A stretch of DNA of 63,776 bases, filler included, from Asterionella formosa (GCA_002256025.1; 8 parts of 8 records of this genome joined end to end with filler, not necessarily neighbours in it); one strand, 5' to 3'; shown: positions 10,153 through 57,155, numbered from the whole stretch's first letter. Notes: generated by a model not told the origin, from the letters alone. Made by a program: numbers and translations.

Positions 10153-10397
10153 TACCAGGTCGTGGTGCCAGGTACCAGGGTACATGGTACCTACTACAGT
10201 ACCAGCTGGGTACCTGATACCTGGTAGCGAGTAACTGGTACATGGGGACGTGACGGGTACACCAAGGGATCGGTCTACCAGTAGCGGTACCTGGTACTCC
10301 GTTCCTGGTACCGATACCAGGTACCAGGTACGGTACAGAACTCGGTACCAGGTACTTTCATGCTGTCATTTTATAGGTACCAGGTACCTGGTACCAG
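10153..10397. repeat. (GGTACCW)n / TACCGGTA palindromic motif cluster in a divergent intergenic region
   Basis: Dense GGTAC/GTACC motifs, e.g. GGTACCAGGTACCTGGTACCAG at ~10376-10397. Confidence 0.9.
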
Positions 10398-10465
10398 CAA
10401 GTTGACATTTTAATCTGGGATAAAGGTAGCTAAATCTTTAGTTTCAGCAAAATTACCGCAACTTG
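10398..10465 (+). mobile_element. Short MITE, copy 1 (internally deleted)
   Basis: Ends CAAGTTG...CAACTTG flanked by CAG / CTG. Homologous to 37463-37550 and 50310-50396. Confidence 0.85.
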
Positions 10466-10829
10466 CTGCAGAGGTTACTGACACCCTCAGCGAACTCCTC
10501 AAACGCTCAGGAGTCCCCCGGTGACGAACTATTCACGTCATCACAGTTCCAATGATATGTTCTGCCTTTCAAGCCACGAAGCGACGAAGGAAGCATCCTT
10601 CTCACGACGTGGTTTTCTTCTTAAATTTTTTTCTTTCTCGTTGTCATACAGTACTGCAGACTGAAAACTGCGTTATCGAAGCCAGCTGGCTGCTGGATTG
10701 AATCTCTTGCCTGTCAACCTTGACAGGCAACCCGTTAGAAGTCCCTTGACTATCAGAAGTCTATTTTCATTCTTCCGTTTTCGTATAATAGAATAAGTCT
10801 GTAAAACCTTTTGGCATTGAGAACCAACG

Positions 10830-12923
10830 ATGAAGCATTTACATTTCACCTCGTTGCTTCTGACGAGCATTGTGCTTCCACCAAGCCTTAGCTTTGCTCC
10901 AATCTCGTTGAAATTACACCGTCGACTGACATTGGTTTTCAGCAGCAAAGCAGATAAGGATCGAGAAACAGAAATCCGACGAAAGATTATGCAGCTCAAG
11001 AAAGCGGGAAAAATCAAGAAATACGCTCTCGACGAAGTGCAGGCTGAACTCGACGAAGACGACCTAGTAGGGCTGAGCACTCTTGAAAAAATGCAGCTCC
11101 AACGACAGCGACTGAAAAATTCATCTGCGCTTGATGATTATGAAGCTGCCATTAAGGAAAAGTTGGGAAAGAACAAAGCCATTTATTTGGGTCTTGACGT
11201 TGACGTGGTGGAGGACATGTCGGAACCAAAGCAAGGACCACAGCGACAGGGCCAACTAGGTTCTCTACGGCCTACATCTACTCAAGAGAGTAAGCTGATT
11301 GTTCCAAAAATCAACATTATGGATCCATCACTCTTAGAGAACACAGTGGAAGAGGACGACGACGATGGTGACGGCGAGCTTGAACTCAATGAAGAGGAGC
11401 TCGTTGAGTTGGTCGCTCGGAAACTCAAGGAAAAGCGAGCTCGTGAGAGAGAGCAAGAAGAGGCGGATCAAGCTGGCAAGATCGCTATAATTGTAAATCA
11501 AGCGAGGGAATCTGCCACAAGAACAGCGGAGCAAGTCACACCTTTGACAAAGACCACAACTGGCATTGGTGGTTCTTGGGCCAAGAACGAGACAGCTGAA
11601 GAAGAGTCGTATCGACCCTCTCGAGGATCCTGGGGATACTTTGAGCGCCCCAAGGATATTAGCAAAGCATTTGGAGGTGGTCGTCGGGTGGGAGTTGGTT
11701 ATACCAAGGAAGCTGATGTTCGCCTATCCGAAGAGGAGACCAAGAGGCGCCTGCGGGAATACCGCGAAAAGGTAGGGATTGATGTTCAAAGTGAAAAGGA
11801 CCACGCCGGAGAGATTGAAGAAGCCCTAAGGATCTCTGGCTTGGCGATGGAGCGAGGTATTTACAATACTGCTGTATCTTCCTTGGAAAAGGTCACCAAA
11901 TGGTGTTCGTCCAACTCGAGAGTAGGTGGCAAAGTGTTTTTGGAACTCGCAATGGCCTACGAAGCGAATGGGCAGACAGAAGAAGCCATTTCTGTGTACC
12001 AGACTCTGACAAAATGTCGTATTGAGGAAATCAAACTTAATGCAAAAAAGCTCCTGTATGGAATAGAAGCACTCCAATTCATGAGAGACGAAGCCAAAAG
12101 TGAGGCGTTCAGTCGAAAAAAAGCCCGAAATGCCTTCATTGATACAACAAGCAATGCTCTTGCGAACTTTGCAGATAATTTCGACGATGTTTACCGAACT
12201 GGCTATGTAGATATCGATTCTGGGTTTTATCGGAAATTGAGCGAGAATGTTGTTCGATCAAATCGCGAAGCCCGGCAGATTTTATTGCGAGCTACAGTAT
12301 CTGGGGAAGTGAATCGGCTCAAGGTTGTGCAAGCTCTCCGTTCATTGAGCCGTCACTTTGACGAGGCACTTGAAAAAGAGATCGAAAGTGCTGCCCCCAT
12401 CAAAGAACCAGTTGCAGTGATTGATGGCAAGCCTATCTTGATACAAAAGAAGACCCAAGATTTAAAGAGTGTGGGAGTTGACGATTTTGTACTGGCCAGT
12501 GCATCGCAAATGGTTGAAAATCTTAACGGTGAATGGAGGCTTCAACTGCTTGCAGATAAAAAGGGAGATGGTGTCAAGTATTTTGATAGCAATCTCGCAT
12601 GGCAAAACTTGGATACCAAACGAATGGTATTCTCAAGTGCATCTCCTGCTGGGTTTATGTCCATAATCGATTCAGGCATTCTTGAGTTTAAAGAAGAAAG
12701 GCGCATTTTGGTGCGTGGCAACGTGGAATCATCAAGTAGTCTGCTATCTGGCCTATTTCCAAACATTGGAGCGACGTCAAGCGTTGTTGCTCAGCAGATT
12801 GTTATTGTAGACTCTGTCCTCCTTGTAACTCGATGCGTTCCTGGGAAGCGCCGACTCAAGGACGAGATTAAAGAGTTCTTTGCTGTGTGGAGAAAAGTGA
12901 ACCCCGGGACATATTCGAAGTGA
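10830..12923 (+). CDS. Plastid-targeted TPR-like protein
   Basis: 697-aa ORF with signal peptide ending SLS-FAP. YRPSRGSWGYFERPKDISKAFGGGR resembles a plant chloroplast TPR family. TPR helix LELAMAYEANGQTEEAISVYQTL. Confidence 0.8.
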   Translation: MKHLHFTSLLLTSIVLPPSLSFAPISLKLHRRLTLVFSSKADKDRETEIRRKIMQLKKAGKIKKYALDEVQAELDEDDLVGLSTLEKMQLQRQRLKNSSALDDYEAAIKEKLGKNKAIYLGLDVDVVEDMSEPKQGPQRQGQLGSLRPTSTQESKLIVPKINIMDPSLLENTVEEDDDDGDGELELNEEELVELVARKLKEKRAREREQEEADQAGKIAIIVNQARESATRTAEQVTPLTKTTTGIGGSWAKNETAEEESYRPSRGSWGYFERPKDISKAFGGGRRVGVGYTKEADVRLSEEETKRRLREYREKVGIDVQSEKDHAGEIEEALRISGLAMERGIYNTAVSSLEKVTKWCSSNSRVGGKVFLELAMAYEANGQTEEAISVYQTLTKCRIEEIKLNAKKLLYGIEALQFMRDEAKSEAFSRKKARNAFIDTTSNALANFADNFDDVYRTGYVDIDSGFYRKLSENVVRSNREARQILLRATVSGEVNRLKVVQALRSLSRHFDEALEKEIESAAPIKEPVAVIDGKPILIQKKTQDLKSVGVDDFVLASASQMVENLNGEWRLQLLADKKGDGVKYFDSNLAWQNLDTKRMVFSSASPAGFMSIIDSGILEFKEERRILVRGNVESSSSLLSGLFPNIGATSSVVAQQIVIVDSVLLVTRCVPGKRRLKDEIKEFFAVWRKVNPGTYSK

Positions 12924-13712
12924 ACTTATAGCTAGCTACCATGGGCTGGAAGAACATGATGTATTTATTGTACTTTCTCGACGAATTCATCTGCTTGCTT
13001 ATAGTTTGACATTAGACTTTTAACTACTATAGTAAATTGAGTGGACATGACAAGAATGGAAAGCACGTGCAAACAAAGGTGAGGCGAACTAAGGCACACT
13101 TACTTTCAACTGATGAATGAACAAAAAGGAAGTCGTTTTCTTTTATACACTAAATCATTTTATAGTGAAACTATGGTGGTATGAGGTAGGCTAATAGGGC
13201 TGGACTGCACAGCTACATAAGTGTAGAATAACAAGCCAAACAAGGGCCACAACCCTAAGGGCCAACTGATGTCATGTAATTAAATTAATCAACAAAGACA
13301 CAATTTTTATCTCTAACAGAAACAACAGAAATGAATTTTGGGAGGATGGATTCTCTTCAACAATTATTATTATCACTAGCTACTTATGGAATAATGCTTT
13401 TAATCATTTGTAAACAACATGCGCAATGGCATCATTTGAATCTTTAGACAATGAAACTTACTCTGCAGCAAGGAAACAGGATGACCAGTGGGTTGCAAGT
13501 ATCACTCCTGCTGATTTTTTCATTGACAACAATAAAAGACATGCTCATTCAACAGATATCGCTACAACAATTTTGTGTATTTGTGCTCACTTTAAAATCG
13601 CCGGATACAGAAACAAAACAAAGATGATAACAATTACACTCATTAAGAATTGGTTAAAGACTCTTGATCTTTGAGACATGGTGGGGTACAACAAATAGTC
13701 ATCAAAAGAACC

Positions 13713-13853
13713 AAAGAAGTATCTGAAAAGAAACGGCGCTCCTTTTGCTCCTGAATCATCAACAAGGTTGTCTCCTTGCCTAAAGAAGTATCTGAAAAGA
13801 AAAGGCGCTCCCTTTACTCCTGAATCATCAACAAGGAAGTCTCACTCCTTGCC
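13713..13853 (+). repeat. Tandem duplication of a ~70-bp unit
   Basis: AAAGAAGTATCTGAAAAGAAA.GGCGCTCC...CTCCTGAATCATCAACAAGG occurs twice. Confidence 0.9.
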
Positions 13854-14219
13854 TACTACTATCAAAGCAACTTTCCACTACCAGAGAAGATATTGCCAAT
13901 GACTCAAGTACAGCAATTTCCGAGTTATCTCCCTCCTTCCCAATTGTCTGCATTTCCATCTCCAGTTCCTGCTGATATTTAATGGATGACGATTCTGAAC
14001 GATCTCACCAGATTATTAAGGAACAGGGACAACCTCCAAAGAATCAGAGGAAAAAAATGCTGCAACTGCTCCGAAATATATTAAGAAGCATCATGGCACA
14101 TACTAATATTGAGTAATTAATGTCAACTTTGATGAGAAACATCAGCAAGATATTTTGTGTCTTGGGGAATACTCCAACTATACAAAATCTGAACTGAGTT
14201 TGAGTAATAGCATATCTTG

Positions 14220-14449
14220 CTTTCAATTTTATGATCATACAATCCTGAAACTATGATGATTTACTGTCCCTCTGCAGTAGCAACAGTCCTGAACATGTTC
14301 TGTTGCTTGCTTACTACTCCAACTACCCCCTTTCAATTTTATGATCATACAATCCTGAAACAAAGATAATTTACTGTCCCACTGCAGTAGCAACAGTTTT
14401 GAACATACGGTGTTCTGTTCTGTTGCTCACTTACTACTTCGACTACCCC
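14220..14449 (+). repeat. Tandem duplication of a ~110-bp unit
   Basis: CTTTCAATTTTATGATCATACAATCCTGAAAC...CTGCAGTAGCAACAGT...ACTACCCC starts at 14220 and at 14330. Confidence 0.9.
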
Positions 14450-14595
14450 TAGTAGTACATCACTTCCTACCTGCTACTGGCACTCTGTATATAGATGATG
14501 AAATGTGATGATTATATGATGTACACATGAAGAACTCCCGCCTAAAAAAGGGGCTTAAATAATTAGCTACCAAAATCCTTGAGTATAAATAAAAG

Positions 14596-15075
14596 TCGTG
14601 GAAAACAATGGACATATCGTGCATTGAAATTTTTTGAATTATCTATATACAAATATGATCATCTCAACAATACCAGACGTTCCATATTGAGAGTGCCTTT
14701 GAATGTTATAAATGTATGACACTTGATATATTTATACATTTACAAAATTTATAACTATATACATGGCAAATATATTTGAAATTGTTCTGTCATGTTAACA
14801 AACAATGCCTGCTTCGTGAAAAGAAATATCGTAGTAAAGCATATGACAAGGAAAGTTTACGCAATAACGAAAAAAAATGTGGCTTACACACATTGTGCCT
14901 TTGAAAGATGGAGTATGTTTAAGGTAATAAAGCCATCAATTTGCGTGGTACTTGGATGACAATCGTTGGGAGGCAGGACAACAACAAAGTGTAAACTAAA
15001 CGCACATTTCCTTTTTTCTCAGTTGAATCAACAGCTCGTTTCGCTTGTTGGAGAGCACCAATGTAAAACAAAAAT
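14596..15075 (+). repeat. Dispersed ~480-bp non-coding repeat, copy 1 (probable non-autonomous TE)
   Basis: Colinear with the reverse complement of ~26750-27256, sharing the end GTGGAAAACAATGGACATAT. Confidence 0.9.
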
Positions 15076-16329
15076 AATATTGGTAATTGCTCTTGTCATT
15101 GGACCTATTCACTTCTGATGGAACATAACTGACGGACACGCCACTTTACCTTCTCTCGAACTTAAGCTAACGAAAATCGGTTAGTTTTTTTCGACAACAT
15201 TGGATACCTGAAACTTACTTATTCAAGAATTTACTGACAACTTACTATTACAGACTTATGCATCGCTTGCTTTGATTTGGCTGTGGTAAGTGAAGCAAGC
15301 AAGAGGATACGATGGAATGGCGTGATGTTGTGTCAGTGTAACATGTCTAGATAACAAGTCATTCCTTCTCATTGTTACTGTAACTGCATAGGACAATAAA
15401 ACCGATCAAACAACGGAATAGTCGGCGAGTTCAGAACGACACTAACAGCAGGGAAAGAGACGCAACATTAGTAAGGCACTGCTTGGCACAAGCTTCAGAA
15501 TAGAGGAAGAAAAGGGCGAGACAGGAATATACATTGAGACAATTGGAGAGGAGAGAAACATTCCTCGGGTAGCTGTCGAAACAGAAGTATCATTGCTAAA
15601 TTTGTTAATTAAATTACAATCCATTCCAATCCTTTTTGAACAATCCATGTGATTGGTATTATGATCATGTTCAAGATAGATATACAATGAAACAATTCAT
15701 ATGATAGCATAGAGTTTAGCTGATTTTAGGTTGCGTTGTAGTAATAATTTACATTTGGCAATCTCAAGAAGTGAAAATGAAATGGGAAGGTTTATGATAT
15801 TGATAAGAAATGTGGTTGATCAGTTGATATACATTTTGTGATGATAATTTTCTTATTATCATTATACTTCAAGTTTGGTAAAATATCAATAAATTGTTAT
15901 AGTTACAGGATACCTTGATCATAGTTTTGATCCAAAAATTATCATGTACATGAAAATCTTCTGCCACTTAACATACAATACCCTTGATCCTATATGCATG
16001 ATAATTTTTATTTGCAGACGTTGGTAGCAATTGCTACCAATTTGGACCCAAATTGATATCAAGCCTTTCCAACTTCTGGGGCATAGATTCCCACAAAATG
16101 ATTATGATGACGTATTCAGTGATGTCACCTGTCTTAGTAATCGCAATTGATACCCTAAATTGGTTATGCCAAATCGGTAGTTCCAAATCGGTGTCACCAA
16201 ATTGGTAGCAACAGCGTTCTATACTAAATCGTTTTAATGTTTTTTTCATCAAGTCAATCTAATAGTAAAGCAAGTTGTGAGTTTTTACTGTTAAGTCGAA
16301 ACCAACAACAACATGACCAACGGGTTAGC

Positions 16330-17280
16330 CTACTCAATAGCCTACCAGCACATCAAGACCAATATGAATGTGGATTTCAACAGCTGATCCCACCATGCAC
16401 ACCTTGGCTGACAAATTGACGAACAGGGCAGCCCATATGATGCGTTTTTGACAATTAGAGCAACAGTTCAGCCCCTCCATAGCTAGTATCCCATCAAAAC
16501 CAACAGCTGAGCCAGCCAACAATGCCTAGCTAGTATTGACATCTAGACCATCACCAGCAGGCTGGAGGTCAGGCCCCCTCCGCACCACCTACATGGCTGA
16601 CATCAAACCGAAATGATTGGCTGCTGATGCCAGCAACTGATTCCTCCAACAAATCAACCAACAGCTGAGCCAATGCCTGTTGAAATCAAGACCATCACCA
16701 GGTGGAGGACAGCCCCTCCTCCCCTCTCCCTACATGGCTGATGTAAAAACCTACATGATTGGCTGTGATGCTAACAGCTGATTCCACACCATGATGGCCA
16801 ACATATAGACCAACAGCTGAACCTTTTCTGCCTATCGATATCTCTTACCATCAGGTCAGCCCCTTCATCATGAGCTATGGCTGACATCAAAGCCGAAATT
16901 ATTGATGCCAACAGCTGATTGCAGACCACAGTCGTTGATATCTAGAGCAACAGGTCAGACTATCATGCCTTAGCTCAGGTTAGAACTGCTGCCATAAATG
17001 CAAACAACAGCTGAGAAATCTCACCCCTTTGCCAAAGGTCAAAACCAACATGGTTCCCAAAACTGATCCCACACCTTGGCCAGCGTCCTAACCAACGCTA
17101 TTGCCGCCTTCTTACACTACGGTTTGGCCGACATTGCTACAAAAGCAAGCCCAACTCCTTGGATGATGCACATCTAAGCCAAACGTTTTGGTACATGCAG
17201 CTCGCCTCCTGTTCATACCTCTTGGCTGGCTGACATCTAAACTGGCCAACATCGCTACCAATCATCAAACATACCTTACT
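16330..17280 (+). pseudogene. Decayed Pro/Thr-repeat (PTAEP/PTADP-type) coding sequence with ~150-bp periodicity
   Basis: CAACAGCTGA recurs at ~16378, 16501, 16659, 16811, 16909 and 17005. CCA ACA GCT GAG CCA encodes PTAEP. No long ORF remains. Confidence 0.55.
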
Positions 17281-17549
17281 ATTGATGTCGAGAACACTAT
17301 ATATATTATTTATCAATGCTTCCATTTTGATGTCATTTTGATAAAGTATTCATCATGTCGTTTTTGTTGCTAGCTCCAGGCGGTCGTGAAAAATGAGTTG
17401 AATTATTGAATATATACCTTGTTGGACGATATTCAACATATTTAAAATAATAGTGGCTGTATGTATATTACTGATCATACCAATTTGGATTTCGATAGCA
17501 TAACATTCATATTATATCTCTTGTATCTTATATCAATGATGATACCAAT

Positions 17550-17795
17550 TAGGAAATCACGAATCCAAATTGGTAGCAAATTTCAATCCCTGATCTTAAT
17601 GCCAACAATAGATACCAATTTCGAAACCCGATTGGTAGTAAAAATAAAATTGACAGCAATTTGGATCCAAATTGGTAGCAACATTTCAGACCATATCACT
17701 AATGCGAACTATAGATACCAATTTTGAAACCGGATTGGTAGTAAAAATAAAATTGATACCAATTTGGATCCAAATTGGTAGGAAATGATACCAAT
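17550..17795. repeat. Palindrome-rich array with a ~103-bp direct repeat
   Basis: 17608-17682 resembles 17711-17785. Perfect 24-bp palindrome TACCAATTTGGATCCAAATTGGTA at 17757-17780. Confidence 0.9.
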
Positions 17796-17938
17796 GTGTA
17801 GATGTGGAACTTGACACAACCAAAGATGGTAGTAATATAGGAAATGACATGACCCAACAAAGTTGACAAAATCATCAGGATTGCCTGATTGTTTGTTTTT
17901 TCGATAGGCAACTTGATAATGATGATTAATGTATCTCA

Positions 17939-18860
17939 TTACCAATGAAAAGTCTTTGGAAGTGAGGACATCATATTTTTTGCGTAGTCAGCATCAATTC
18001 CAACTTGGTCCCAGTATTCATCTTCGGGAAATGCTAGAATGGTGCAGTTGACATCCTCATCATCAATATATGTGACAACAAGTCGATCGAAAATGAACTT
18101 GTGTCGAAATCTTCTTGCATCAAGTTCAGCCAGAGTTGGTGGCTGACGTAGACGCAAAACATCACTGCGATGCTTGTTGCACATGTAGACATTAATGACA
18201 CGGAAGTATGTGTTGCTGCGCGCAGGTCACAGCATCTGGAGGGGTTGACTTTGCCTGTGCCTTATTCTTTTTCGCCTTTTTTACAGGAGGGTTCACTTCC
18301 TCTTGATCAAACTGAGGATCAACCAAAGACTCATGTGGTGGCTGCACTGCTGTTGCCTCTTGAACTTTGTCGTTCCTTTCATCATTATCATCTTCGCAAT
18401 CTTCATCGATTTTGAATTCCTCATCATCAATTGATGAATATTCGTGATTATCATTATCACTATCCAATTCAATGTCTGATTCATTGACATTGAAAGATCT
18501 AGGGTATATACTCTGTGACAAGCTGTCTCTCTTCAAAAGTCGAACAATCAAAGCAACAGTGAAAGCCTTCTTCGTATTTTTGTATCCAGAAAGGTTGTAT
18601 CTGACGCAAATTATTCGGAGAACCTTGACCGAGATCTGCTTCATTGCAACACCTTTGATAAAAATCACCTGTGTCCTTTCACTATCAAGCACAAAGTCAT
18701 CAGGAAGTATGAGGGAGTCAACAAATCGATCGACTTCAGTATCTGTAGCAAGAGACTGCATTGTATTGTTGGAGGTGGTGGGTTGATCTTGATATACAGT
18801 GGTCTCCACATCAACAGTTGTTGTTTGCGTTTGTGTGACTGGTTCCATATGCGGTTCCAT
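17939..18860 (-). pseudogene. Frameshifted transposon-like accessory ORF (small helical DNA-binding-like domain, acidic tract, basic NLS)
   Basis: ORFs 18192-19037 and 17939-18184 abut. Motif KQISVKVLRIICVRYNLSGYKNTKK. Flanked by palindromic arrays. Confidence 0.45.
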
Positions 18861-19224: not shown

Positions 19225-19611
19225 ATCAAGTTACCATTGCTGGTACCAGGTACCGTGTTTTGATACCAACCGTCACTTTTTGCCCGCAACCCGGAAATGA
19301 TACAGCAAATTCGGAATGATAAGAACGACCCTAACCATCTCTTACATTTTTTTTGCCAAGTTGGTATCAAAAATACCGATTTGGCTAAAATCCCAATTTG
19401 GATTTCGGACACAAAGAAAAGACTTGAAATCCCAATATGGAGTCCGAATTGGGTACTTTTCGTCTCGTGTGTACGTGAAGAGATTAACAAATCCATAACT
19501 TACGCACCAACCAAATTTTTTTTTCTTCCCATCAAAATACATCGCTCAAATTGCTCATTTTCAATCTCAATTTTTGACTTTCGGTTTTATATACCGGTAT
19601 TGTTTCCAAGC

Positions 19612-21225: not shown

Positions 21226-21509
21226 TGAAATAATCCATGCGCAATATTTTGATTAAAACAACTGGAGACACTTATAGAAGCATGAATTCAACAACAAAGG
21301 AACAATGTACGAAATACATTAGTAAAGTCCAATCGATACATCTGAGTGCCAATACCTAAACCTGCATTCCTGGGTACCCTAAACTTAACTCACAACGAAG
21401 GACTAGTTTCCCTGGGTGATTAAATAACGGGAGTAGCAGCAATGTACATTGACCTATCAAAAGAGGAATGGGGAATGATCTGTAGATTCCAACGTCTGGC
21501 ATTATTTTT

Positions 21510-26733: not shown

Positions 26734-26749
26734 GAGCACTTACGCAATT

Positions 26750-35456: not shown

Positions 35457-35474
35457 GGGGCAGATGAAACGCCG

Positions 35475-37271: not shown

Positions 37272-37462
37272 GTTCGGTTGAAAGTGGCTCCATGGGGCAG
37301 TACATGGTGATGCCGGTAGACTACGGTAGTTTAATTGATTAATAGGATTACATCACCCTGGTACACGGAATACATAAAAATATTTTATACCCGTACGGCA
37401 GAAATAACAAGAAATTCCTATATATACAGTACATAAGAATATAGACATCAGACCGGTACCAG

Positions 37463-37550
37463 CAAGTTGGGGTAATTTTGCTGAACTAAAGATTTAGCTA
37501 TCTTTATCCAAGATTAAAATGTTAGGTTTAAGCAAAATGACCGCAACTTG
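37463..37550 (-). mobile_element. Short MITE, copy 2 (88 bp)
   Basis: TIRs CAAGTTGGGGTAATTTTGCT / AGCAAAATGACCGCAACTTG, with CAG on both sides. Confidence 0.9.
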
Positions 37551-37682
37551 CAGATAGTCATCGTACCTGGTTACCAGGTCGCATGCAAATGCCGGTACCG
37601 GTTAGTGTTGTTATGATGATAAAACATGATATCATTTCTTCATTTACTGGTGGTATAATTAACAAGAGCAATTAAGATCGAA

Positions 37683-38006
37683 ATGGAATTATTGCAAGAA
37701 CCAAGTGACTATGACGAAATGAATGACGATGAGGAAGGACTCCTGATCATGATGAATACCGATAATGCTCCGCCACGATCCAATAAGCCCTCACGCGATT
37801 GGAATGACAAGGCGATTGTAGAATGCCTCCAATTGAGTTTGACCACAGAAGCTCACGTCAAGGAATGGAAAGCACCCAATCCTATGTATGATGCTTCCCA
37901 GAAGTGGATACCAGCACGACTGGAGATTCCAACATGGTTGACGCACGGAGGTGAGGATACGAAAACAGCTTCACAACGGAGCAATGAGGAAGTAGCCGCC
38001 ACATAG
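37683..38006 (+). CDS. Small acidic protein with an SMN N-terminal (Gemin2-binding)-like motif
   Basis: RDWNDKAIVECLQLSL resembles SMN DIWDDTALIKAYDKAV. No Tudor domain or YG box is visible. Confidence 0.5.
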   Translation: MELLQEPSDYDEMNDDEEGLLIMMNTDNAPPRSNKPSRDWNDKAIVECLQLSLTTEAHVKEWKAPNPMYDASQKWIPARLEIPTWLTHGGEDTKTASQRSNEEVAAT

Positions 38007-38220
38007 AGCAAATGCTTGTCATTTCTGTGGGACAAGAACGTCCTCAGCTCATCCAATTTGACAGCACCAGAGGTAGCCAAAGAAGTGGACAATCCAAAAA
38101 GGATCGAGGTTTTTGATACTCGGCAATACGAGTATTGCGATCGTGATGTATTCGTACTACTAAATGTGTCATACTTATTAGCTACTGAAATTACCGCCAA
38201 CACATGAATCGTTTTCCGCT

Positions 38221-40521: not shown

Positions 40522-40749
40522 TTGAAGTGTTCTTCCTCCTTATTCTCGTTTCACTTTTATGAGCCATAACAATACGATACCTGGTACCTGGTACATAAGC
40601 AAATATTACACATCAAGCACGACCCTAATTGTTCATTTGTATGTTTTTCTCCGTCAATCCATTTATAATAGAGTAATAAAACTATGTTTATTGGACGTCG
40701 CTCATTTGGATGACTAATACTCATGTACATATATTTCTAAATACCTTCA

Positions 40750-41777
40750 TGTACAGAAATGTTTACCGATAGATGAATACAGGGTTAAGTAAACTTTGCA
40801 GGCTTCTCGTTTTTCACAAATGGACAGCATTGCTTCATTCCATATAAATAGGCTTCTCGTTTCGTTCAAGAGGTTCCTTCGCGTGTGTTGCTTTGCATAG
40901 TAGCACGCACCCTTCCACGACCACTTGGAGTAAAATTGTCTTGAAAAGCCTGACAACTGACATGCTCGTTTCTTGATAAATCACACAATTGCCTTCAGCG
41001 AAGCGAAGACAGTTTGATCAGTAGTCTGAAAAGTGTTCTTGTGAAGGTGCTTGTTTCAGTTTTTAAATGATTGTTGACTCTCGAAATAAGCAAAAACCGA
41101 GCGAATTGATTGGTCCAAAGTCTTTGCATGATTCAATTCAAACTCTTGAGTTGCCACTCATTGGGCATAGACCAGATAATGATAATACATGTATCTTCTT
41201 TCGACAATCCCATTTGATCCTCGGGTTGAGGCTTTAGTTGTAGTAGCCTGTTTAAAGTTTCAAGGCGGGCTCCAAAGTCCATTACCACATCTGAAATGGT
41301 TTAGATGATAGATAGTGAAGCATCCACTAACTTTGACATTGAAAGCTATCATTTGGAAGATGATAGTCAAGCCACAAAACCATTGCTTCATCGAAACTGT
41401 CAAAAGATTGATCTTCTAGAAGCACTTCCACATTTAACCAATCTGGTAAGGCAATATCGGTCAAACACCGCCCTTCTGAAGTATGAAAAGATATCTGCAG
41501 GGCTAAAAGCACATGTGTTAACCATATCACGAAATTGACTCACTCCAATCAACAACGCCTCCACAGAGCTTCTACCAATGACATCTTGTTCGAATGATTC
41601 AAACCTTCCACCAGTCAAAGCAACTCGAAATGTCTTAGTTTTAATGGTCAATACGTTGTAACCCTTAATAAAGGAGATGACAGAAACCCTTGAAGAAATT
41701 GCCATGTTTGTTCTAATTAGACTATTTTTGAATTCAAATTGAAGTATCTAACTAGAAGTATTAGTATTTGTTGAATA
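40750..41777 (-). mobile_element. Degenerate gypsy-like fragment: end of 5' LTR plus a decayed gag
   Basis: The reverse complement of 41740-41777 matches 63350-63387 at 37/38. It is followed by ATG 41705 and fragmented gag-like frames (DFGARLETLNRLL...SMPNEWQ). Confidence 0.6.
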
Positions 41778-42892
41778 GTAGCTAGGCAATCAAATCTTAA
41801 AATACGCTTTCATTGAAACTCAAATCTAATGGAGTACTTGGAGTCGCACTAGCAGGGCCCATATGGGCCCCAAGGGAATGACGAGTGAAGGGTGAGTCCA
41901 TTGAGGAACTCGTAGGGGTTGCAATTTGGAGGTAAAACAACTGTAGGGATTGTGAGCTACTAGGGCAGCAAGGAGCCCATTCTGGGGTTCTTAGAGGGTT
42001 TGGAGTCATGTGTAGAAAAGTAGAGGGAAATGCGAGCAGATAATCAATGAACAGGTAGCAAATATGAAAACTGCACAACCATTTTGAGAGAGTTATTTTG
42101 AAAAGAGAATCTTGGAGTTGGTAGAATCAATATGAGGAGTGTAGTACTAGCTCGATGAAGAGCAAGAGAGAAGGGTCTTGGAGGACAAAAACAATATTTT
42201 GGCAAACTGTATTACATTTCGGTTAATTTGAATTGAGAAGACTGGCAGGCGATTGCCAGAATGAAGCAAATGTAGTAGGCAGAACAAGGTTGGAGCACAT
42301 CCCTGGCATTCATGTCCAGAAGTCAAGCTTTGATTTCTTGTTTGCGCGTTTGGGCGCTTTCTTTTGTGGAGTGTCAACAGGAGCAAGCGGTTATTGTTGT
42401 CCATAGGAGGGTTGCTCGGAGGGGCAGCAGCAGCACATGCTGCCTTGTCCGAAGACACCATGGTGGGGGCGGACAATTCAGCAGCAGCATGTAGGGAGGG
42501 CCGTACTAGGGCCAGTACTACTACTAGTGTAAAGGGTGTATGATAACCAGAAAGGTGCAAGTTGTATTGTTCAAAAAGCAGTATTTGTTGAATATGTAAG
42601 CTAAATAGTTATTCATTTTATGCAACTCATTCTCCTAGGTTGACAAAAAAAATTATTTTAACATCGCCCAGTAGCTACTAGCACGGAGGAGTATATACCG
42701 GTAATATTTTTCAGGAGACAAAACTCCCCAGCATTTTTTAATATTTACCGCCACCATGATGCAGCAGACGTGCATGATGTCTGGTGCATCATGGGTGCGT
42801 CGCAAGAAGACTCTACTTACAGACACGAAATCATCAGCGACAATAACCCAGGGGAAGAAACGAAACTTACTCGCTTCATAATCGAAGTTGAT

Positions 42893-43602
42893 ATGGTTTT
42901 TTACTTCAAGACACGATGTGGTGGCTACACTATCTACATGGGAAAGGACAAGTATGAAAACGAAGATCTGATCAAGTATGGGCTGGAATCAGATGTTTGG
43001 TTTCACGTCGACGATCTATCGTCAGCTCACGTTTATCTTCGACTCAAGCCTGGCGAAACAATGGATGATATCTCTGAGGCGGCACTATTAGATTGCGCTT
43101 CGTTGGTGAAGGCGAATAGTATCGCAGGGTGCAAGGTATGTTTCTTTTCATTCCCTCCTCTACGGACTTCTTCCCATAAGCACTCACCTCAGTCGCTTAG
43201 ATGAACTCTGTTTACGTGGTGTACACGCGGTGGAAGAACTTGAAAAAGACATCCCAGATGGTCGATGGCCAAGTTGGATTTCATAGACCGGACAACGTTC
43301 GTCGTATGGAGGTTGAAAAGAATAATACGATTGTGAATGCGTTGAATAAAACAAAGGAAGAGAGCCACCCTAACCTATTCAAGCAGCAACAAGATGCGAT
43401 ACGAGAAGCACTAGAGCGAAAGAAAGCTGAGCGGCGATTTGAGGAAAAGGCGAAGAAGATTGCTGCCTTGGAAGAAAAGCAAAAACAGGATGAACTTAGT
43501 TACGATAGGATCATGAACACCAGCAACATGAAAAGTGCGTCAGAAATGGGCGGAACAGCAGACGAATCAGCAGCAGAGGCATATGAAGACGATTTCTTCT
43601 AA
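42893..43602 (+). CDS. CCDC25: CCDC25 (NFACT-R domain protein); exons 42893-43135 and 43201-43602
   Basis: [67 protein letters not shown]-terminal EDDFF. 65-bp GT-AG intron. Confidence 0.95.
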
Positions 43603-43769
43603 TCCAAGAAACGCTATTCAAATTAGAGGAGCTATTCAAATTTGAAATATCATCATACCTGATACCGTTGTTCAGGAAAACAAGTCATAATCTTTTGTTT
43701 CGGAGTTCAATTCTTGGACTACAGGTACGCGTAGGCGCTCGAATTGCCTCTTGATCATATTTTAGTATG

Positions 43770-44084
43770 TTATACCATTTCGGCGTCGTCGCAAAAAAGT
43801 CTTTTCATGCACATACGGCATTTCTTGGGATTATTTTGCTTTTGACGAGGAAATGCACACGCAGGTTTGCGATCTCCGCAACCAGTGCATGTTCGACGAC
43901 GACCAATGTTGTTCTCGGTGATGAACGAACACAAGCGGCAAGTAGGCTTGGTTCGCCGCAAAGGATAACGGGGGAAATCTGTTTTCGTCTTGTCTATTCC
44001 ACACAAATTGCAAGTAATTCGATCGTTCTTGTTCCTGTGGTACTTGAAACGTTGCTCGACGAGGTTACCCGACAACACCAACAT
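43770..44084 (-). CDS. Small Cys-rich zinc-finger protein (Stc1-like CxxC repeats); start uncertain
   Basis: Two units of C..C...K....F.....C..C. Confidence 0.5.
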   Translation of the reverse strand: MLVLSGNLVEQRFKYHRNKNDRITCNLCGIDKTKTDFPRYPLRRTKPTCRLCSFITENNIGRRRTCTGCGDRKPACAFPRQKQNNPKKCRMCMKRLFCDDAEMV

Positions 44085-44831
44085 TTTGAAGTGATGAGAT
44101 TGATCAGTGCTTGAATTGTGAGCCGAGATTATGGGCTCCCTACCTGTATTTGGTCGAGCTAATATCCGATAGGGAATCTTGGTAGGAATAGCCAGAAAAC
44201 TTGAAAACGTGCAGTCCTGGGATAGATCACGATTGAGAGTTTAAATACCTGGGCATCCATGACATGCAAATTTTGCCGATCCTCATAAAGTGATCCCGGC
44301 ATGGCTGATTGTTTTTCGCTGGGAGTTTTGAAATAACTTACCATACGGGTTTACCCAAGAAAATTGTCAGAAACGGCTATATAACGGTAAACTCTTTTGT
44401 GTACATCATGCCAGTACCGGTACCCTGGTACCAGTACCACAGCAGCTCCTGGTACCTGGTACCAGGTACCAGGTAATTGACGAGGGATTCATTAGATTCT
44501 GTCGACCTCGGAGCGCAATCGCAACTAGGGCAACAATCGCTCATTCGTCGTCCTTGTCCGCTATCATTTTAATTTCATGATAGCGGTACATGAAGGATGA
44601 TCAAAAACAATCATATATACCTCTATATATCTTATGGCTGTATATATGATAAATATGCATGATATTTCTATTTTACCGGGATTTTTTTCAGTACTCCGGA
44701 AAAGTACTTAGAGTTGTAGCGGAATTTGGAAGGAGTGAATCATTTCCATTTGATTACCGGTACCCGGTATTACATTTTACCATGGCTATTCGATATTGCT
44801 GCTTGTCATAGCGACGAACATCTACACATAA

Positions 44832-45491
44832 ATGATCGTCAGGAAGCTTGCCGTAAATATTTTAGCGCTGAATACGGTCTGCCGCGTCCGAATGAATCCA
44901 ATCAAGTCACTACCAGTAGTCATTTCAAGAAAAGGCACTACATCAATGGAATCGAACAGTATGTCGGCGAACGACTCATCACTCGGTAAAAACTATTTCC
45001 TACTAAAATCTGAACCAGAAGAATTTTCCATCCAAGACTTATCCACTACTAAAGGCTCTATGGAGGAGTGGAGTGGTGTACGAAATTTTGCTGCTCGTAA
45101 CATTCTCCGTGAAATGAAGGTGGGAGATGAAGCCTTTTTTTATCATTCAAGTTGTAAGGTCCCGGGTATAGTCGGTACCGTCCGAATAGTAAGAGAAGCA
45201 CAACCAGACGAGACAGCTTTAGACCCCAAGCATTCTGGGTATGACCCCAAGTCCACAAAGGAAAATTGTCGTTGGGACTCTGTCAAGGTGAGGTTGGAGG
45301 CTATCTATCCCGAGATCGTCACGTTGAAAGAGCTCAAGGCGCAAGCGAGCGTAAACCCTGTGATTGCGGACATGACAATCTTGAAACGAGGTAGGTTGAG
45401 TGTCACCCGAGTAAAATCAGAGGAATGGGAAGCTGTTGTGTGTATGTTGGAGAGGAAGATGGCCAGCGAAAATATTTCAAATGTTAGTTAG
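44832..45491 (+). CDS. EVE-domain protein (THYN1-like); true start may be at 44946 or 44961
   Basis: YFLLKSEPEEFSIQDL, WSGVRNFAARN.LREMKVGDEAFFYHS, YDPKS, RLSV..V...EW. Confidence 0.9.
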   Translation: MIVRKLAVNILALNTVCRVRMNPIKSLPVVISRKGTTSMESNSMSANDSSLGKNYFLLKSEPEEFSIQDLSTTKGSMEEWSGVRNFAARNILREMKVGDEAFFYHSSCKVPGIVGTVRIVREAQPDETALDPKHSGYDPKSTKENCRWDSVKVRLEAIYPEIVTLKELKAQASVNPVIADMTILKRGRLSVTRVKSEEWEAVVCMLERKMASENISNVS

Positions 45492-46389
45492 CAAGCAAAG
45501 AATAAGAAATGGTAAAACAGACAAGCTAATTTCAAATTGACCTGTGAAACTATTACCCGACACCTATGCACAATTGAGAGTTTCTACAGTTCAACCCTTT
45601 TGGTGTCCCTAGAATCGTTTGACTTGTGCTGACTAATCTCCTAAAAACTGTCTACCGGTATTATCATGTTATCATCAAATGACAGTACCAGGTGGTACTG
45701 GTACTGGTACCGGTACCAGGTATCATGAACGAAAACAATGATTCTATGTGCATCTGCAGCTACTATGTAGTTCACCGTGAAGTGCACGAGAAAAATTAAT
45801 TTAGTCTTCATCCAATTGAAAACGTTCGCGCCAAAAATAAATCGATCCTTTTGTTCATTAAATATCCTCGTCGCTATATAGTATTTTATAATGCATTCGT
45901 GCGCACTCATTTTTAAAACCGTGATAGGTTTCACTTGAATCGCTATTTTAGTTTCTGAATAAAATACCTCGTAGACCTTTGAACGACCATGGCATCGAAG
46001 TTCCCGCCAGGCGCGCAATAAAATATTTGTACATAAAATACCGGTATCATACCCTGGTACTAGTACCTCAGGTAAGTAACATCGGTATATTTGCAACGTA
46101 AAAGTGCTACCATTTTTTATTGCATAACAGCTTTTGTACACATAGTACCACCCACACCTTTCAACGGAGCACCTTTGAGGACATCACAATCCATTCATCA
46201 TTTTTCCTCCGAAGTAACTTTTAAGCTCGCAGTTCAAACTTACCCACCTTCATTGACACTCTTCAGAAAAAGCACGAGGAGAACAGCGAGGCCTATCTTT
46301 TAATACTTATTATCAAAGGACGAATTGGAATAAAAGCTCGCCCTGTGTGCTAAGAATTGCATGTTTCGAGTTCACATATAAATCAAACC

Positions 46390-49165
46390 ATGGTGGGACA
46401 ACGACGACGCAATAATGCCGCTTCTGCTGTTCTGTCTGTTGAAAGAAGGATGGAACTCTTGGAGAGCAGATTCACTACTCCGTCATCAAATCATAACATG
46501 CCCGCACCTTCCTCTCCTCAGGATGCCACTGTCACCACCCAAGCATCCAATCACTCATTCTCACCGGGCACCTCAAGGCATTCGTTCAACTTTGATGCAC
46601 CGGCATCACGAAGTTTCAGCGGCAGCTCCAACCAATCGAATGCTTCTAACATTGACAAGGCTCTTATACGCTCCAAACGCAAGTCTTCCAGCAAGCGATC
46701 CTCGCTCAGTGATGTTCACCTCGCGGTTGAGCGCCAAATGAGGAGGGTCATGGCGGCCTCACCATTGATTGGTACGCATCCACATGATGCTTCCAGCATG
46801 TCGGTCCTTCCCTCGCCGCAAATATCTAATCTGTCCATGTCAAATCAGACGCTGCTGACATCGCATGTCAAGCATCCGGCGGAGCATGTGAAGGTTGTTG
46901 CGGAGTCACCACCAACTTTGGTATCGCCTGCTCTTGACGCCTTACACAGTACCGAAGCGCAAGTGCCACAGTTACAAGTGCCAGTGAACAGCAGTGTACG
47001 TTGATTTGGAACGAAATGCTGAGTTATTTACGCCAGTTTGCTCTGCTGACTAACTTTGCCGACTCATTTCTCCCTACAGGTTGACAAGCGTAAATCTGTT
47101 CCTGTAAAGCGAACACTTCCGTCCGTCACGGAAAAACCCTTAACGAACACCAATAATAAGAGCCTTACTCCTGGATCAGCTGCTAGCCGCAAACGAACTC
47201 GCCTCAACTTTACGGAACCACCACAAATTTCTCCTTTAGCAAAGATCTTGCCACCTGACATCTCAACTGCGTCTCGTGACCGATCAAATTCTGCCCCTTC
47301 GAGTAAAAAGGGAAAGATGGCACCTCAGAATACCCTCATTCATGATTTCTTCGCTGTGGCTACCAGCAAAGCCACAAAAACGCGAGACATCTCGGCAGTA
47401 ACTTGTGCAGTCGAGACTCGGTCGCAGGCCCGTCTCGCTGCAGCTGCGGCTACTACGTTTACAGGTAGCCCTTGTGACTCTCAAGACAAGTGGCAACAAC
47501 GATGTCAAGAACTTGAACAACTTCTTTTGGACCGGAACGAACAGCTCACGGCAGTCTCCAACAACCAGACTATTATGCACACTGCGCTGCGTCAAATGGT
47601 TCATCGACTCGAAAAAGAGTTGGAAGACACTAAGAAAGCCAAAGAAGCCTATACCCAACAGACTGCAATTGTGATTGAAAAACTTGTTCGGACTGATTCT
47701 GCCCGAGAGGCAAAAGAACTTCGAGACAAGCTTGCTGGAGATGGTTCCAGACTGGGTCGGATTGTTTACACACGTGCTGGAATGAGAGCTGTGGAGTCAT
47801 GGGAAGATGGGTATGCGTTCAAGGAACTAAGAACTCGCAAACTCGAGCTCGAGATTATGCGTGAAACATTGGTGACTCGACGAGAGGAGGCTAGTCAAGC
47901 TACGAACGAACTCAACGAAAAACGCAGTAGTGTGAATGCTACTGAACTAGTTGCTATAGATGCTCTTAGTGTAATGGAAGCTCAGGAATCTGCCGAGATG
48001 CATATGGAAACTGTTAAAAAGCAGGAAACGATCCTTGCCGACGAAGAGCAAGCGCTTAATGATGAAAAAGCGAATCATATTCGCGCATGGAAGAGGCTGC
48101 AAAGTGAAGAGGAATCTCGCTTTAGAACTAGGCCAAAGGTAAGGTTGTACAACCGACTTGAGATTTTCAAAATTGCGTGACTCTAAACCTTCTTGCTGTC
48201 ATGGAATCCAGCTGGACAATCGCTATGTCTTGTTATCACTTTTAGGGAAAGGAGGTTTCTCAGAAGTTTGGAGAGCCTACGACCTCAACGAATTACGCGA
48301 AGTCGCCGTCAAAATTCATCAGTTGGACCCTCGTTGGTCTGATGCAAAGAAGGACAATTACACGAAGCATGTCACACGTGAATACGAAATTCACCGAGAT
48401 GTGCGTCATCCACGTATAGTCTCTCTTTTTGATGTTTTTGAAATCGACGACAATTCGTTTGCGACTGTTTTGGAGTGTTGCAAGGGCACTGATCTTGATG
48501 CCTTACTAAAGGAAAAGAAGAGGCTTCCAGAGCGTGACGCCAGAGCCATCTTGCTTCAAATTTTATCAGGCATGCAGTACTTGAGTCAGCCCTCAGGAAA
48601 TCGTCAGGGGATTATTCATTACGATTTAAAACCAGGGAATATTTTATTCGACGAATTTGGCGATGCCAAGATCACAGATTTTGGTTTGAGCAAAATTGTT
48701 GATACCCCGGATCCAGCTGAAAGTATGGAACTTACGAGCCAGGGAGCCGGGACATATTGGTATCTACCACCAGAATGCTTTGTAACCAACGAAACAGTTA
48801 GAATCAGGTATGTTTCGCTTTGGTTTAATTGTTCCAAGCCTTGCAATTTTGTTGGAAATCACACTTACCCGTTATTGCTTTGGATTCGATGCATTTACAG
48901 CAACAAAGTTGATGTCTTTTCCATTGGAGTGATATACTACCAGATGTTGTTCGGTCGGCGACCATTTGGAGATGGCATGTCGCAGGACAAAGTACTCACT
49001 GATCACACCATGCTCAATGCTCGCGAGGTTAAATTTCCTGATCGGATTGTTATCTCTGATCAAGGCAAAGACTTCATTCGGCAAGCGTTGATGTACGATC
49101 AAGCCTTTCGACCAACAATCGCCCAACTTTGTCAAAATTCTTACGTAACAACAAAACTATTCTAG
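46390..49165 (+). CDS. TLK: Tousled-like Ser/Thr kinase; exons 46390-46995, 47080-48138, 48212-48807 and 48901-49165
   Basis: RLG...E.WEDG coiled-coil region, LLGKGGFSEVW, KHVTREYEIH, IIHYDLKPGNIL, ELTSQGAGTYWYLPPECF, ISNKVDV after splicing. Three GT-AG introns, all frame-consistent. Confidence 0.95.
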
Positions 49166-49198
49166 AAAAATTAACTGAAGCTACTCTACATTCTTTTA

Positions 49199-50143
49199 TC
49201 ATCCGTTGACAATTCGAACAAACGATTTCACATGAGAAGCAAGCATCATCACAATCTTTTCATCAGCTTTAGTAAAGACACTATCACTGCCATCGTCATT
49301 TTTCTTGTTCACCATTTGGATAACTCCAATGACTTCGCCTTTGCAACCTTTCACTGGTACAGTCAAAATGCTCTTAGTACGAAATCCGAGGTCTTTGTCT
49401 CCATCTGAGTTGAACCTCTCGTCTTTGTAGGCGTCGTCGACAATGACAGGTTTTCCCGACTGAAGGCAAGCTCCTACAATTCCACAATCTTTAGCGATCC
49501 GAAGCTCTCGATTCGTTCCTGTGGAAACCCAAGACCAAAGCTTATCACCGTCTACCATCCATAATGTTGCGCGGTCAGCAGTGACGAGTAGGTGCCCTTC
49601 GTCAAGTATAGTTTCAAAGATGGATGTAAGTTCCTTTGCTTTTTTTGCTCTCTCCGCTCTATCGGTATCCATGAAGAGGAGACAAGTCATGCCCAAAAGA
49701 CAACCTGTCACTACACCAACACATCCACCAAACGTAGTGTATAGTCTCGCCGATTTCCCTCCCAATTGTTCAGCAGATAAGCCATGATGCGGCAGGTTTA
49801 ACTTGGACACCCCGGCATCGACCAAACCACCGCAGGTAAATCCAGCAACGTCACTAATGCACTGACCAAATCCAGCGGCTGTCAGGGTGCTCAGACTAAA
49901 CGCTACCCCTAGACTCATATCAATAGCTTCGCCCGCTTGAATCATGACAATATTATCCATGAATCCGAATCCAATCATTGGAATTGCCGAGCGAAGCGCC
50001 ACAATTCGAAGTTGATGACGAGTTGGTGTTGGTGCAAGTTTTACAGAGGAAAGATATCGCAGAGTCATGGCATACTTAGTGTGCCCCTGAGAGTGGCGCA
50101 TTACCTGCCGAAAGGCGGTGATGTGCTGCATCATGGAGGGCAT
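49199..50143 (-). CDS. TMEM65 domain fused to a C-terminal GAF domain; mitochondrial-type presequence
   Basis: TMEM65 motifs AIPMIGFGFMDN.VMI.AGEAID, STLTAAGFGQCISD, GCLLGM. GAF motifs ADRATLWMVD, GIVG, DAYKDERFN...D...GFRTKSILTVP, GVIQMVNK...FTKADE. Confidence 0.9.
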   Translation of the reverse strand: MPSMMQHITAFRQVMRHSQGHTKYAMTLRYLSSVKLAPTPTRHQLRIVALRSAIPMIGFGFMDNIVMIQAGEAIDMSLGVAFSLSTLTAAGFGQCISDVAGFTCGGLVDAGVSKLNLPHHGLSAEQLGGKSARLYTTFGGCVGVVTGCLLGMTCLLFMDTDRAERAKKAKELTSIFETILDEGHLLVTADRATLWMVDGDKLWSWVSTGTNRELRIAKDCGIVGACLQSGKPVIVDDAYKDERFNSDGDKDLGFRTKSILTVPVKGCKGEVIGVIQMVNKKNDDGSDSVFTKADEKIVMMLASHVKSFVRIVNG

Positions 50144-50309
50144 GAACGAGATTCGAATAATGTCTTGACCCAGAAGTTTCGCTTGTGACCATTTCCTGCA
50201 CAGATGATGTTTTGAATTGTTCTGTTGAGGAAGATACTTGGTCGAGATCTTCTGCCTTTCTTGGCTCCTTTCGTACCTGGTACCTGGTACTATAATTACC
50301 AGGAACCAG

Positions 50310-50396
50310 CAGGTTGCGGTCATTTTGCTTAAATCAACAATTTAATCTGGGATAAAAACAGCTAAATCTTTGGTTCAACAAAATTACCGCAATTTG
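50310..50396 (+). mobile_element. Short MITE, copy 3 (87 bp); a solo terminus also lies at ~50487-50510
   Basis: CAGGTTGCGGTCATTTTGCTT...CAAAATTACCGCAATTTG, with CAG on both sides. Confidence 0.9.
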
Positions 50397-51041
50397 CAGG
50401 GAACTATCGCTCACAACTCACACCATTCAGTACAGGACCTGGTACGAAAACAATTTTGGTATCTGTTTTACATATTATGTTGATTATTTAAGCAAAATGA
50501 CCACGACTTGCTTGTTTTCCTGGTGTGGAATTCTGGTTAAAAAAACAACCGGCTGTGAGACGCCTTATTGTACTACCCTGGTATGGGTAGCTGCCAGATA
50601 TCGGTCCTCCGAGTATGATACCGGTAGTATGTTTTAAAATCTTACCTGGCTGCTCTCTATGTAGTGTAGTACCCGATACGCACAGTGGCGGCACCGGGTT
50701 CCAACACAATCAGGTAGAGTCTTTCTGGTAAGTCTCCCAGGGTAGGAACCAACCCTCATTTACAACCGGACCTTCCCTGATGACACCGGTAGTACCTGGT
50801 ACCCGTACTACTGGTACCATGTTATATATCATATGCATGATGCAGGATTTGTGAGGATTTATGTATTATTGCCGGTACCAGGTACCAGGTACCATACCCT
50901 GCATAAAATGATGAGCGAGACGAGGATACCAAACAATCACATGTACAAACCCGCACATCATATCATACCGGTAATCATCAGCTTTCGATCATCCTTCCTT
51001 CTTTTCATGGAAAGCCATCATTGCTTCACTCAAAGATCATA

Positions 51042-54403: not shown

Positions 54404-54442
54404 TACAGCATTCATGGTACATGGTTTACCAGGTACAAGGTA

Positions 54443-57140: not shown

Positions 57141-57155
57141 CGGGGGGGGGGGGGG

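Follow-up and report, generated by a model that had tools for sequence, protein, structure and literature searches.

Clusters of GTAC-core palindromes upstream of genes in a freshwater pennate diatom

The DNA analyzed here is a stretch of 63,776 nucleotides from an assembly of Asterionella formosa (GCA_002256025.1), which we call the window throughout. It is nuclear DNA of a diatom, and the host is a freshwater raphid pennate. Besides protein genes, among them those for a malonyl-CoA synthetase, a pseudouridine synthase and an HDAC protein, the window contains a Copia-like element with long terminal repeats (LTRs), mariner-like remnants, MITEs (miniature transposable elements with inverted repeats) and dense clusters of short palindromic words. 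We find that these words form a family with a GTAC core, which marks the intergenic DNA 5′ of nearly every host gene and does likewise, in varied form, in other diatoms. An initial annotation had described strand-symmetric (GGTACCW)n heptamer runs as a mark of gene 5′ regions. All the runs and clusters it listed are present where it placed them, their strand symmetry is borne out, and so are their excess over chance and their concentration upstream of genes and between divergent genes. The diatom origin agrees with the protein matches: the malonyl-CoA synthetase (35475–37271, minus strand) has its best named relative in Seminavis robusta (56% identity), with further named matches in Nitzschia, Cylindrotheca, Epithemia and Cyclotella. 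Most of the public sequencing runs that contain this stretch are metagenomes or metatranscriptomes from fresh water or lake water.

The repeat unit and its position relative to genes

GGTACC occurs 55 times in the window, against a mean of 6.98 (standard deviation 2.40, maximum 14) in dinucleotide-preserving shuffles, none of 100 of which reaches 55. Among longer words there are 11 copies of GGTACCWGGTACC where 0.00 are expected, 34 of TACCWGGTA (0.23 expected) and 26 of TACCGGTA (0.40 expected), a word that lacks the central base and is the commonest palindromic 8-mer of the window; TACATGTA is mildly raised (8 versus 1.6 expected). Tandem Repeats Finder gives ten rows of period 7 with 2.4–3.7 copies and one period-6 variant at 45693–45722, and only 5 of the 55 GGTACC sites are without another GGTA or TACC within 30 bp. 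Of 46 copies of ACCWGGT, 40 have a T in front and 37 an A behind, with G or C at the next positions outward in about two thirds, and TACC-N-GGTA has A or T at its center 34 times and C or G once. TACC and GGTA are separated by any two bases at 6 sites of the window and by any three at 2, and four specific words with a 2-base spacer that we tried (e.g. TACCATGGTA) have no occurrence in it. The sites without a central base and those with one thus provide two half-site spacings, as are known for some dimeric factors. These flank and center counts indicate a family of TACC(W)GGTA sites overlapping GGTACC, in which the heptamer run consists of such sites placed head to tail. The heptamer that had been taken for the unit is therefore the most regular form of a wider GTAC-core palindrome family (RGTACY, TACCGGTA and TACC-W-GGTA), whose consensus is constrained and palindromic in the way looked for in a promoter element. 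As can be read directly, the unit overlaps CCWGG and GTAC.

Beyond the window, we scanned metagenome contigs for three consecutive units, which yielded at least 124 stretches, and 123 loci were retrieved. G+C is at most 0.50 in 78 loci, and 44 of the 123 were left out for a G+C above 0.50. The gene-end statistics use the window together with 27 loci of at least 5 kb and G+C 0.38–0.50, two loci (L017 and L044) having been excluded as overlapping copies of L016 and L043. Intergenic segments containing the seeding match were removed before densities were counted. Gene models of the window are calls based on open reading frames (ORFs) with Pfam matches, joined within 33000–52999 by contigs from RNA libraries. 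These contigs confirmed four GT..AG introns and show roughly how far the transcripts extend; start sites cannot be fixed from them, DNA carry-over is possible, and uncovered stretches carry no meaning. We counted as cluster sites GGTACC, TACCGGTA and TACCWGGTA.

Twenty-two non-transposon gene models have their 5′ end in the window, and for 21 of them there is a site at most 700 bp upstream (a total of 127 over 12,352 bp, those in a shared divergent gap being counted for both genes); a site at most 700 bp downstream is present for 4 of 23 (a total of 11 over 9,109 bp). Behind these four downstream cases are a lone site at 21373, which two convergent genes share, and two clusters from the upstream region of the next gene. 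In the ORF-based segments, the density of GGTACC is 6.56/kb in divergent gaps, 1.48 in tandem gaps, 0.20 in convergent gaps and 0.34 in coding DNA. Coding DNA and 3′ gaps are thus near background, as had been claimed; the convergent gaps 7356–8254, 21225–21510, 38006–38221 and 43602–43770 hold 0, 1 (at 21373), 0 and 0 sites, respectively, and there are none in a 5.3-kb gene-free, repeat-rich stretch at 12921–18194.

Across the window and the loci, GGTACC reaches 1.57/kb in DNA nearest a 5′ end (67 in 42,541 bp), 0.26/kb nearest a 3′ end (12 in 45,954 bp) and 0.33/kb in coding DNA, whereas ten control palindromes of the same composition are unbiased (82 versus 88 matches, or 1.93 versus 1.91/kb summed). 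The difference between the two ends, on which the initial annotation had staked its claim, therefore persists after correction for length. It is found in the window alone (3.48 versus 0.25/kb) and in the loci alone (0.94 versus 0.27/kb). As sites clump, clusters of at least two sites were counted separately, giving 25 at 5′ versus 4 at 3′ ends in nearly equal territory (binomial p = 2.3e-5), with 12 versus 2 in the window and 13 versus 2 in the loci. An unbiased ranking of k-mers by 5′ over 3′ excess puts GGTAC at the top of the 5-mers (z = 11.8) and CCTGGTA and CTGGTAC at the top of the 7-mers, and the bias toward 5′ ends extends to single dispersed sites, TACCGGTA for example. The words are thus over-represented upstream in the sense used for Phytophthora motifs (PMC3597505), and their distribution in non-coding DNA follows gene ends, unlike that of a neutral microsatellite. 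We take the observation to be genuine and well supported statistically, with a 5′ association that extends beyond a single diatom.

The sites are sparse close to the start codon, with 0.36/kb within 100 bp of the ATG and about 3/kb at 300–1200 bp in the window and loci. Measured from the furthest RNA contig ends, which do not give start sites, arrays are located between 0 and about 240 bp upstream. Such ends fall inside the arrays at 44414 and 50273, the first being that of the minus-strand ORF104 contig at 44420, and the (GGTACCA)3 array at 50874–50894 lies 41 bp upstream of the start of the HDAC contig at 50935. Many RNA-library contigs break, or join unrelated loci, precisely at arrays, which indicates that the same arrays are present in many other contigs of those libraries. 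The clusters are collected in Table 1 together with the transposons of the window.

Table 1. Palindrome clusters and mobile elements, in window coordinates unless a locus is named
Feature	Position	Strand	Context
Cluster, 6 sites	1314–1540		within repeated element paralogous to 59187–59330; beyond the range of the initial annotation
Copia-like LTR element, RVT_2 fragment	1570–4936	−	105-bp LTRs at 1570–1674 and 4832–4936
Cluster, 5 sites incl. period-6 GGTACCGGTACC	5332–5405		~460 bp upstream of eIF2-beta-like gene model; beyond the range of the initial annotation
Largest cluster, 17 sites	10153–10398		between divergent DUF1415 (−) and TPR (+)
MITE, shortened copy	10405–10468	−	abuts array 10376–10395
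Two-unit array	19242–19257		260-bp divergent gap, 40 bp from pseudouridine synthase ATG
Cluster, 5 sites (4 are TACCGGTA)	24223–24407		upstream of Ank-RING/FYVE gene (−)
Cluster, 9 sites	26043–26356		upstream of ORF201 (−)
Cluster, 3 sites	27257–27466		transposon-rich DNA
3.6-unit heptamer array	33609–33633		279 bp upstream of ATG 33912; 237 bp upstream of furthest RNA contig start 33870
Two GGTACC bracketing MITE copy	37455–37602		between divergent malonyl-CoA synthetase (−) and ORF107 (+)
MITE, full copy of 92-bp family	37459–37553	+	abuts GGTACC
2.4-unit array	40578–40594		57 bp upstream of CoA-transferase/EF-hand ATG (−)
Cluster, 9 sites	44414–44475		between divergent ORF104 (−) and EVE-domain gene (+)
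TACCGGTACC at 44755–44764	44755–44767		25 bp upstream of EVE RNA contig start 44789
Cluster, 5 sites, period 6 (TGGTAC x4)	45653–45722		EVE 3′ end to kinase 5′ end
TACCGGTA with GGTAC/GTACC words	46039–46075		~108 bp upstream of kinase RNA contig start 46154
2.6-unit array	50273–50291		5′ end of TMEM65-GAF gene (−); RNA contig end at 50276
MITE, copy	50309–50400	−	abuts array 50273–50291
MITE, fragment	50487–50511		
Cluster, 10 sites	50619–50974		upstream of HDAC gene (+)
Cluster, 7 sites incl. (GGTACCT)3 at 59308–59328	59187–59331		325 bp upstream of RabGAP-TBC gene (+); beyond the range of the initial annotation
Cluster, 3 sites	63391–63506		downstream of integrase ORF; right-hand neighbor beyond window; beyond the range of the initial annotation
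MITE copies outside the window	L009:890–983, L063:384–432		adjoin arrays

Some features of the window stand apart from the clusters or touch them locally. In the TMEM65-GAF ORF the first ATG (50323) lies inside a MITE copy (50309–50341), which would make the array at 50273–50291 coding; translation probably begins instead at a pair of methionines near 50143. The stretch 12921–18194 (5.3 kb, G+C 0.35–0.40) has no long reading frames, carries 69-bp and 103-bp tandem repeats, matches 26734–27487 and 3113–3274, and probably represents mobile DNA in decay. In 26634–30206 and 56833–62140, within transposon-like regions, there are fourteen 44-N runs arranged in pairs, with 12 bases between the members of a pair and a distance of about 1736 bases to the next pair; these are masked stretches without biological meaning. 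There is a 60-base G run, 89% pure, at 57142–57201 and a 17-base C run at 1679–1695. An Rfam scan of the window returned zero families at or above threshold.

Other diatoms and mobile DNA

Contigs of other diatoms contain the same class of words in varied form, again with a bias toward 5′ ends. In the pooled contigs, the 5′:3′ counts of the four RGTACY words are 47:9 for AGTACC, 66:26 for AGTACT, 66:12 for GGTACC and 44:12 for GGTACT, whereas TGTACA is without 5′ enrichment (16:21). Among 4-base palindromes only GTAC has a strong 5′ excess (394:173); that of CTAG is weaker (296:210), and CATG, GATC, TGCA, ACGT, AGCT and TCGA have none. The four RGTACY words mix freely and with variable spacing in these contigs, which fits a recognition word better than a single repair product; GTAC cores lie mostly 3 bases apart in the window and 1 to 4 and more in the loci. 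Another palindrome family, TACTAGTA and CTACTA, is likewise 5′-enriched in other diatom contigs (42:7 and 272:121) and is interleaved with GGTACC in the same clusters. Its carriers are L014, L016, L045, L047, L055, L064 and L076, and the window has no excess of TACTAGTA (1 versus 1.6 expected).

As to the origin of the loci, the Noc2 protein of L045 has its best named relative in Seminavis robusta (60%), and the named relatives of the PP2C/PH protein of L076 are diatoms only. When the fetched loci were compared, only L049 and L027 have DNA in common with the window, which indicates that the remaining loci stem from other genomes, and no orthologous genes were found among them. L049 was rejected as an orthologue of the window, since its sole match, of 268 bp, is equally good in every reading frame. 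This match (window 5770–6022 with L049:1333–1599) is 88% identical, and its equal similarity across all frames suggests that the reading frame 5841–6371 may be non-coding.

L049 and L063 represent one region in two related genomes (mean column identity 83%, with long unique stretches near-identical by eye), and individual arrays differ between them. At one site, one contig reads TA and the other TA-CAGG-TA; the remaining array differences have no TA at the empty site. GGTACC is kept in both contigs, with 25 sites in 2,045 bp and 18 in 1,209 bp, respectively.

Self-comparison of the window revealed no repeat family that carries the clusters. After masking of the motif, we further compared the 280 flanks of 140 arrays, taken from the window and the 78 loci, and similarity was limited to three situations: duplicates of the same locus (L024/L098, L039/L104, L049/L063), a 92-bp MITE and a few matches of at most 57 bp. 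The arrays are thus not copies of one transposon or MITE family, whereas confinement to a single such family, unrelated to start sites, is what the initial annotation had named as fatal to its proposal; most flanks are without the MITE, and arrays far outnumber MITE copies. The 92-bp MITE has a 23-bp terminal inverted repeat, CCWGCAAGTTGCGGT(A/C)ATTTTGC, starting CCWGCAAGTTGCGG. Four of its ends read TA directly followed by CCAGCAAG, while ends away from arrays keep CC...GG but are without TA, and no consistent target duplication can be read from the five copies. RNA-library depth over the MITE is several-fold above the surroundings, which suggests many copies in transcribed DNA.

The Copia-like element is inserted exactly within a site of the family, between TTACC and TGGTA (TACCTGGTA), with a 5-bp duplication, TTACC, at 1565–1569 and 4937–4941; an uninterrupted paralogue of the insertion site lies at 59187–59195. 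The only Tc1/mariner-like transposase in the window belongs to a DDE_3 element at 55482–56810 (a weak Pfam match), and this element was rejected as a partner of the MITE because its ends, CTCCCTC..., do not match. The region 53027–56831 comprises two adjacent, partly deleted mariner-like copies, whose inward-facing ends at 54391–54455 read TA followed by CTCCCTCTGTC. No autonomous element with matching termini was found within the 64-kb window.

What the clusters may be

We favor the interpretation, to which we give a probability of about 0.45, that the clusters are sites for a putative dimeric factor and act as a general, orientation-free upstream element. That a protein binds them, and that transcription is affected in any way, we infer from their near-universal presence at host genes, the tight palindrome, the degenerate RGTACY core with variable spacing in relatives, the absence from 3′ and gene-free DNA and the precedent in oomycetes. 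The GTAC-core words would then be clustered binding sites of a sequence-specific factor that binds as a dimer and serves as a general, orientation-independent promoter factor, for example by keeping a shared promoter region nucleosome-free. The arrays would expand and contract fast through local duplication and deletion, and the accessible DNA that they mark would also draw MITE and LTR insertions.

The initial annotation knew of no description of the repeat. Literature searches, which reached few subscription journals, found none of these words or clusters in diatoms; the supplementary motif tables of a diatom single-cell preprint, which are not part of its accessible text, might list such a word (10.64898/2026.03.25.714157). 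Near relatives have, however, been published in Phytophthora, and the account that follows is limited to the accessible parts of these papers. Two palindromes, TACCGGTA (M94) and TACATGTA (M93), count there as promoter motifs of high confidence (PMC3597505); 12,070 Phytophthora genes have TACATGTA upstream (PMC3520976), and the MYB-related PsMyb37 binds this word in yeast one-hybrid and gel-shift assays (PMC11134190). The main text of a protein-binding-array survey of P. infestans factors, as far as accessible, is without these words (PMC11267843). Like the sites of the window, M94 and M93 (the latter also motif-1 or AM-20) are 8-base palindromes of the form TAC-NN-GTA, belong to a stramenopile and are very abundant upstream of genes, and M94 is letter-identical to the commonest palindromic 8-mer of the window with its 26 copies. 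The Phytophthora sites described there differ in being single and tied to life stages or infection, whereas the diatom has heptamer arrays and dense clusters of the same word at nearly all genes; the main form in the window has an additional central A/T, and the diatom sites are known from sequence alone.

Words with comparable reach exist at housekeeping promoters elsewhere, such as the palindromic DNA replication-related element (DRE) of Drosophila and the sites of yeast general regulatory factors. Like the clusters, these are short, partly palindromic and located upstream of many genes, often at divergent promoters, but their sequences and lineages are unrelated and the analogy is functional only; we know of no heptamer tandem arrays among them. 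A GTAC core is also the site of SBP-domain factors (the copper response elements of green algae and plants), a core which the words of the window share.

Several points weigh against a role as binding sites. Perfect tandem heptamers make the sites overlap, which is odd for binding sites. Within the window, arrays adjoin all three full MITE copies and one fragment, and the ends of the MITE, CCWG...CWGG, resemble the array core CCWGG; together these point to a tie with transposition. Insertions and deletions between L049 and L063 are nearly all arrays, with blocks of units of 20–29 bp present in one contig and absent in the other, and the paralogous pair 59187–59330 and 1440–1571 keeps TACCGGTA, but only one of the two has a perfect array, that of its counterpart being fragmented. 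Moreover, the gene models behind the 5′ and 3′ counts are our own ORF-based calls, the loci were found through the array itself, a bias countered only by removal of the seeded segments, and among the 27 loci the taxon was checked for L045 and L076 only.

The MITE contacts and the unstable arrays are what would be expected if the clusters were a by-product of transposition without any function of their own, that is, footprints of excision, target-site duplications left in place or favored landing sites in open promoter DNA, with each cycle of insertion and excision adding a few bases and making a new target, so that arrays accumulate at hot spots. We regard this explanation as unlikely but as the main rival, since it accounts for the tandem form, the instability and the MITE association. 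The four MITE ends that carry TA, the conserved CC...GG of the others, the site that differs as TA versus TA-CAGG-TA and the position of the Copia-like element exactly in a TACCTGGTA site would all be in line with it, and the periods of 7 and 6 would fit a 2-bp duplication with 5 or 4 retained bases. As many DNA transposons favor 5′ regions, the 5′ bias is no argument against it. The alternation of TA, a few bases and TA is that of footprints of Tc1/mariner elements, which have TA as target, and in C. elegans the excision of Tc1 leaves TACATGTA words as footprints; for Phytophthora, such an origin of TACATGTA was discussed and then set aside, in the accessible part of that study, so that the question has come up for both organisms (PMC3520976). 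A MITE found repeatedly beside short tandem arrays is likewise reminiscent of microsatellite-associated or -targeting MITEs such as those of pineapple, as the accessible text describes them, except that here arrays outnumber MITEs and most flanks are MITE-free (PMC8449440). What speaks against transposition as the source is that in the 64-kb window no resident element, the DDE_3 element included, was found to combine ends that match with a duplication of TA, that MITE ends off arrays have no adjacent TA and no consistent duplication, and that the flanks of the arrays have no element in common. The spectrum of products is also narrow, with a central A/T in 34 cases versus C/G in 1 and few 2- or 3-base spacers, whereas end joining usually yields mixed products, and the free mixing and variable spacing of RGTACY words in other diatoms argue in the same direction. 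To our knowledge, no case of footprints at such density or gene-by-gene regularity has been described. The transposon footprints that the initial annotation had offered as an alternative thus retain the coming and going of arrays between close relatives and the transposons in and beside them, but not a matching element in the window.

Two further explanations would dispense with a dedicated factor. It is quite improbable, in our judgment, that the clusters act through properties of the DNA, as hairpins or cruciforms, by excluding nucleosomes or as a methylation target at CCWGG and GTAC, both of which the unit overlaps. As single strands, three of five arrays fold far better than their shuffles (−7.4 to −11.9 kcal/mol, z −4.1 to −5.1), but the two others, each with a uniform central base, do not (z −0.9 and −2.1), so hairpin potential is not a constant property, and dispersed single sites, e.g. 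TACCGGTA, are 5′-biased too. Neutral short tandem repeats, arising by replication slippage and surviving wherever selection permits, we hold to be very improbable indeed: the copies do stand head to tail, 2.4 to 4.7 per array, and the number of units varies between related contigs, but by chance not a single 13-base seed would be expected, and yet one occurs at nearly every promoter, the 3′ gaps and the 5.3-kb gene-free region are almost devoid of sites, and many sites are dispersed rather than tandem.

The binding-site interpretation and mobile DNA may also be combined, and a mixed history, in which sites were seeded by mobile DNA and then adopted by the cell, is quite possible. A more far-reaching version, possible but doubtful as a whole, is that raphid pennates use an undescribed general promoter code of GTAC-core palindrome clusters, read by a dimeric and possibly MYB-related factor and kin in kind to the oomycete TACATGTA and TACCGGTA, so that TAC-N-GTA would be a pan-stramenopile grammar, with sites seeded and reshuffled by transposon-like insertion and serving as landing pads for MITEs and LTR elements.

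If transposition should prove to be the source, the clusters would be an unusual case in which scars of mobile DNA shape nearly all promoters of a genome. If they are binding sites as we suggest, they would provide a handle for the annotation of promoters and start sites in diatom genomes and metagenomes, a candidate part for synthetic bidirectional promoters in diatom biotechnology and a bait with which to isolate a major DNA-binding factor. The link to the oomycete TACCGGTA and TACATGTA, finally, makes a common promoter grammar of stramenopiles a testable idea.

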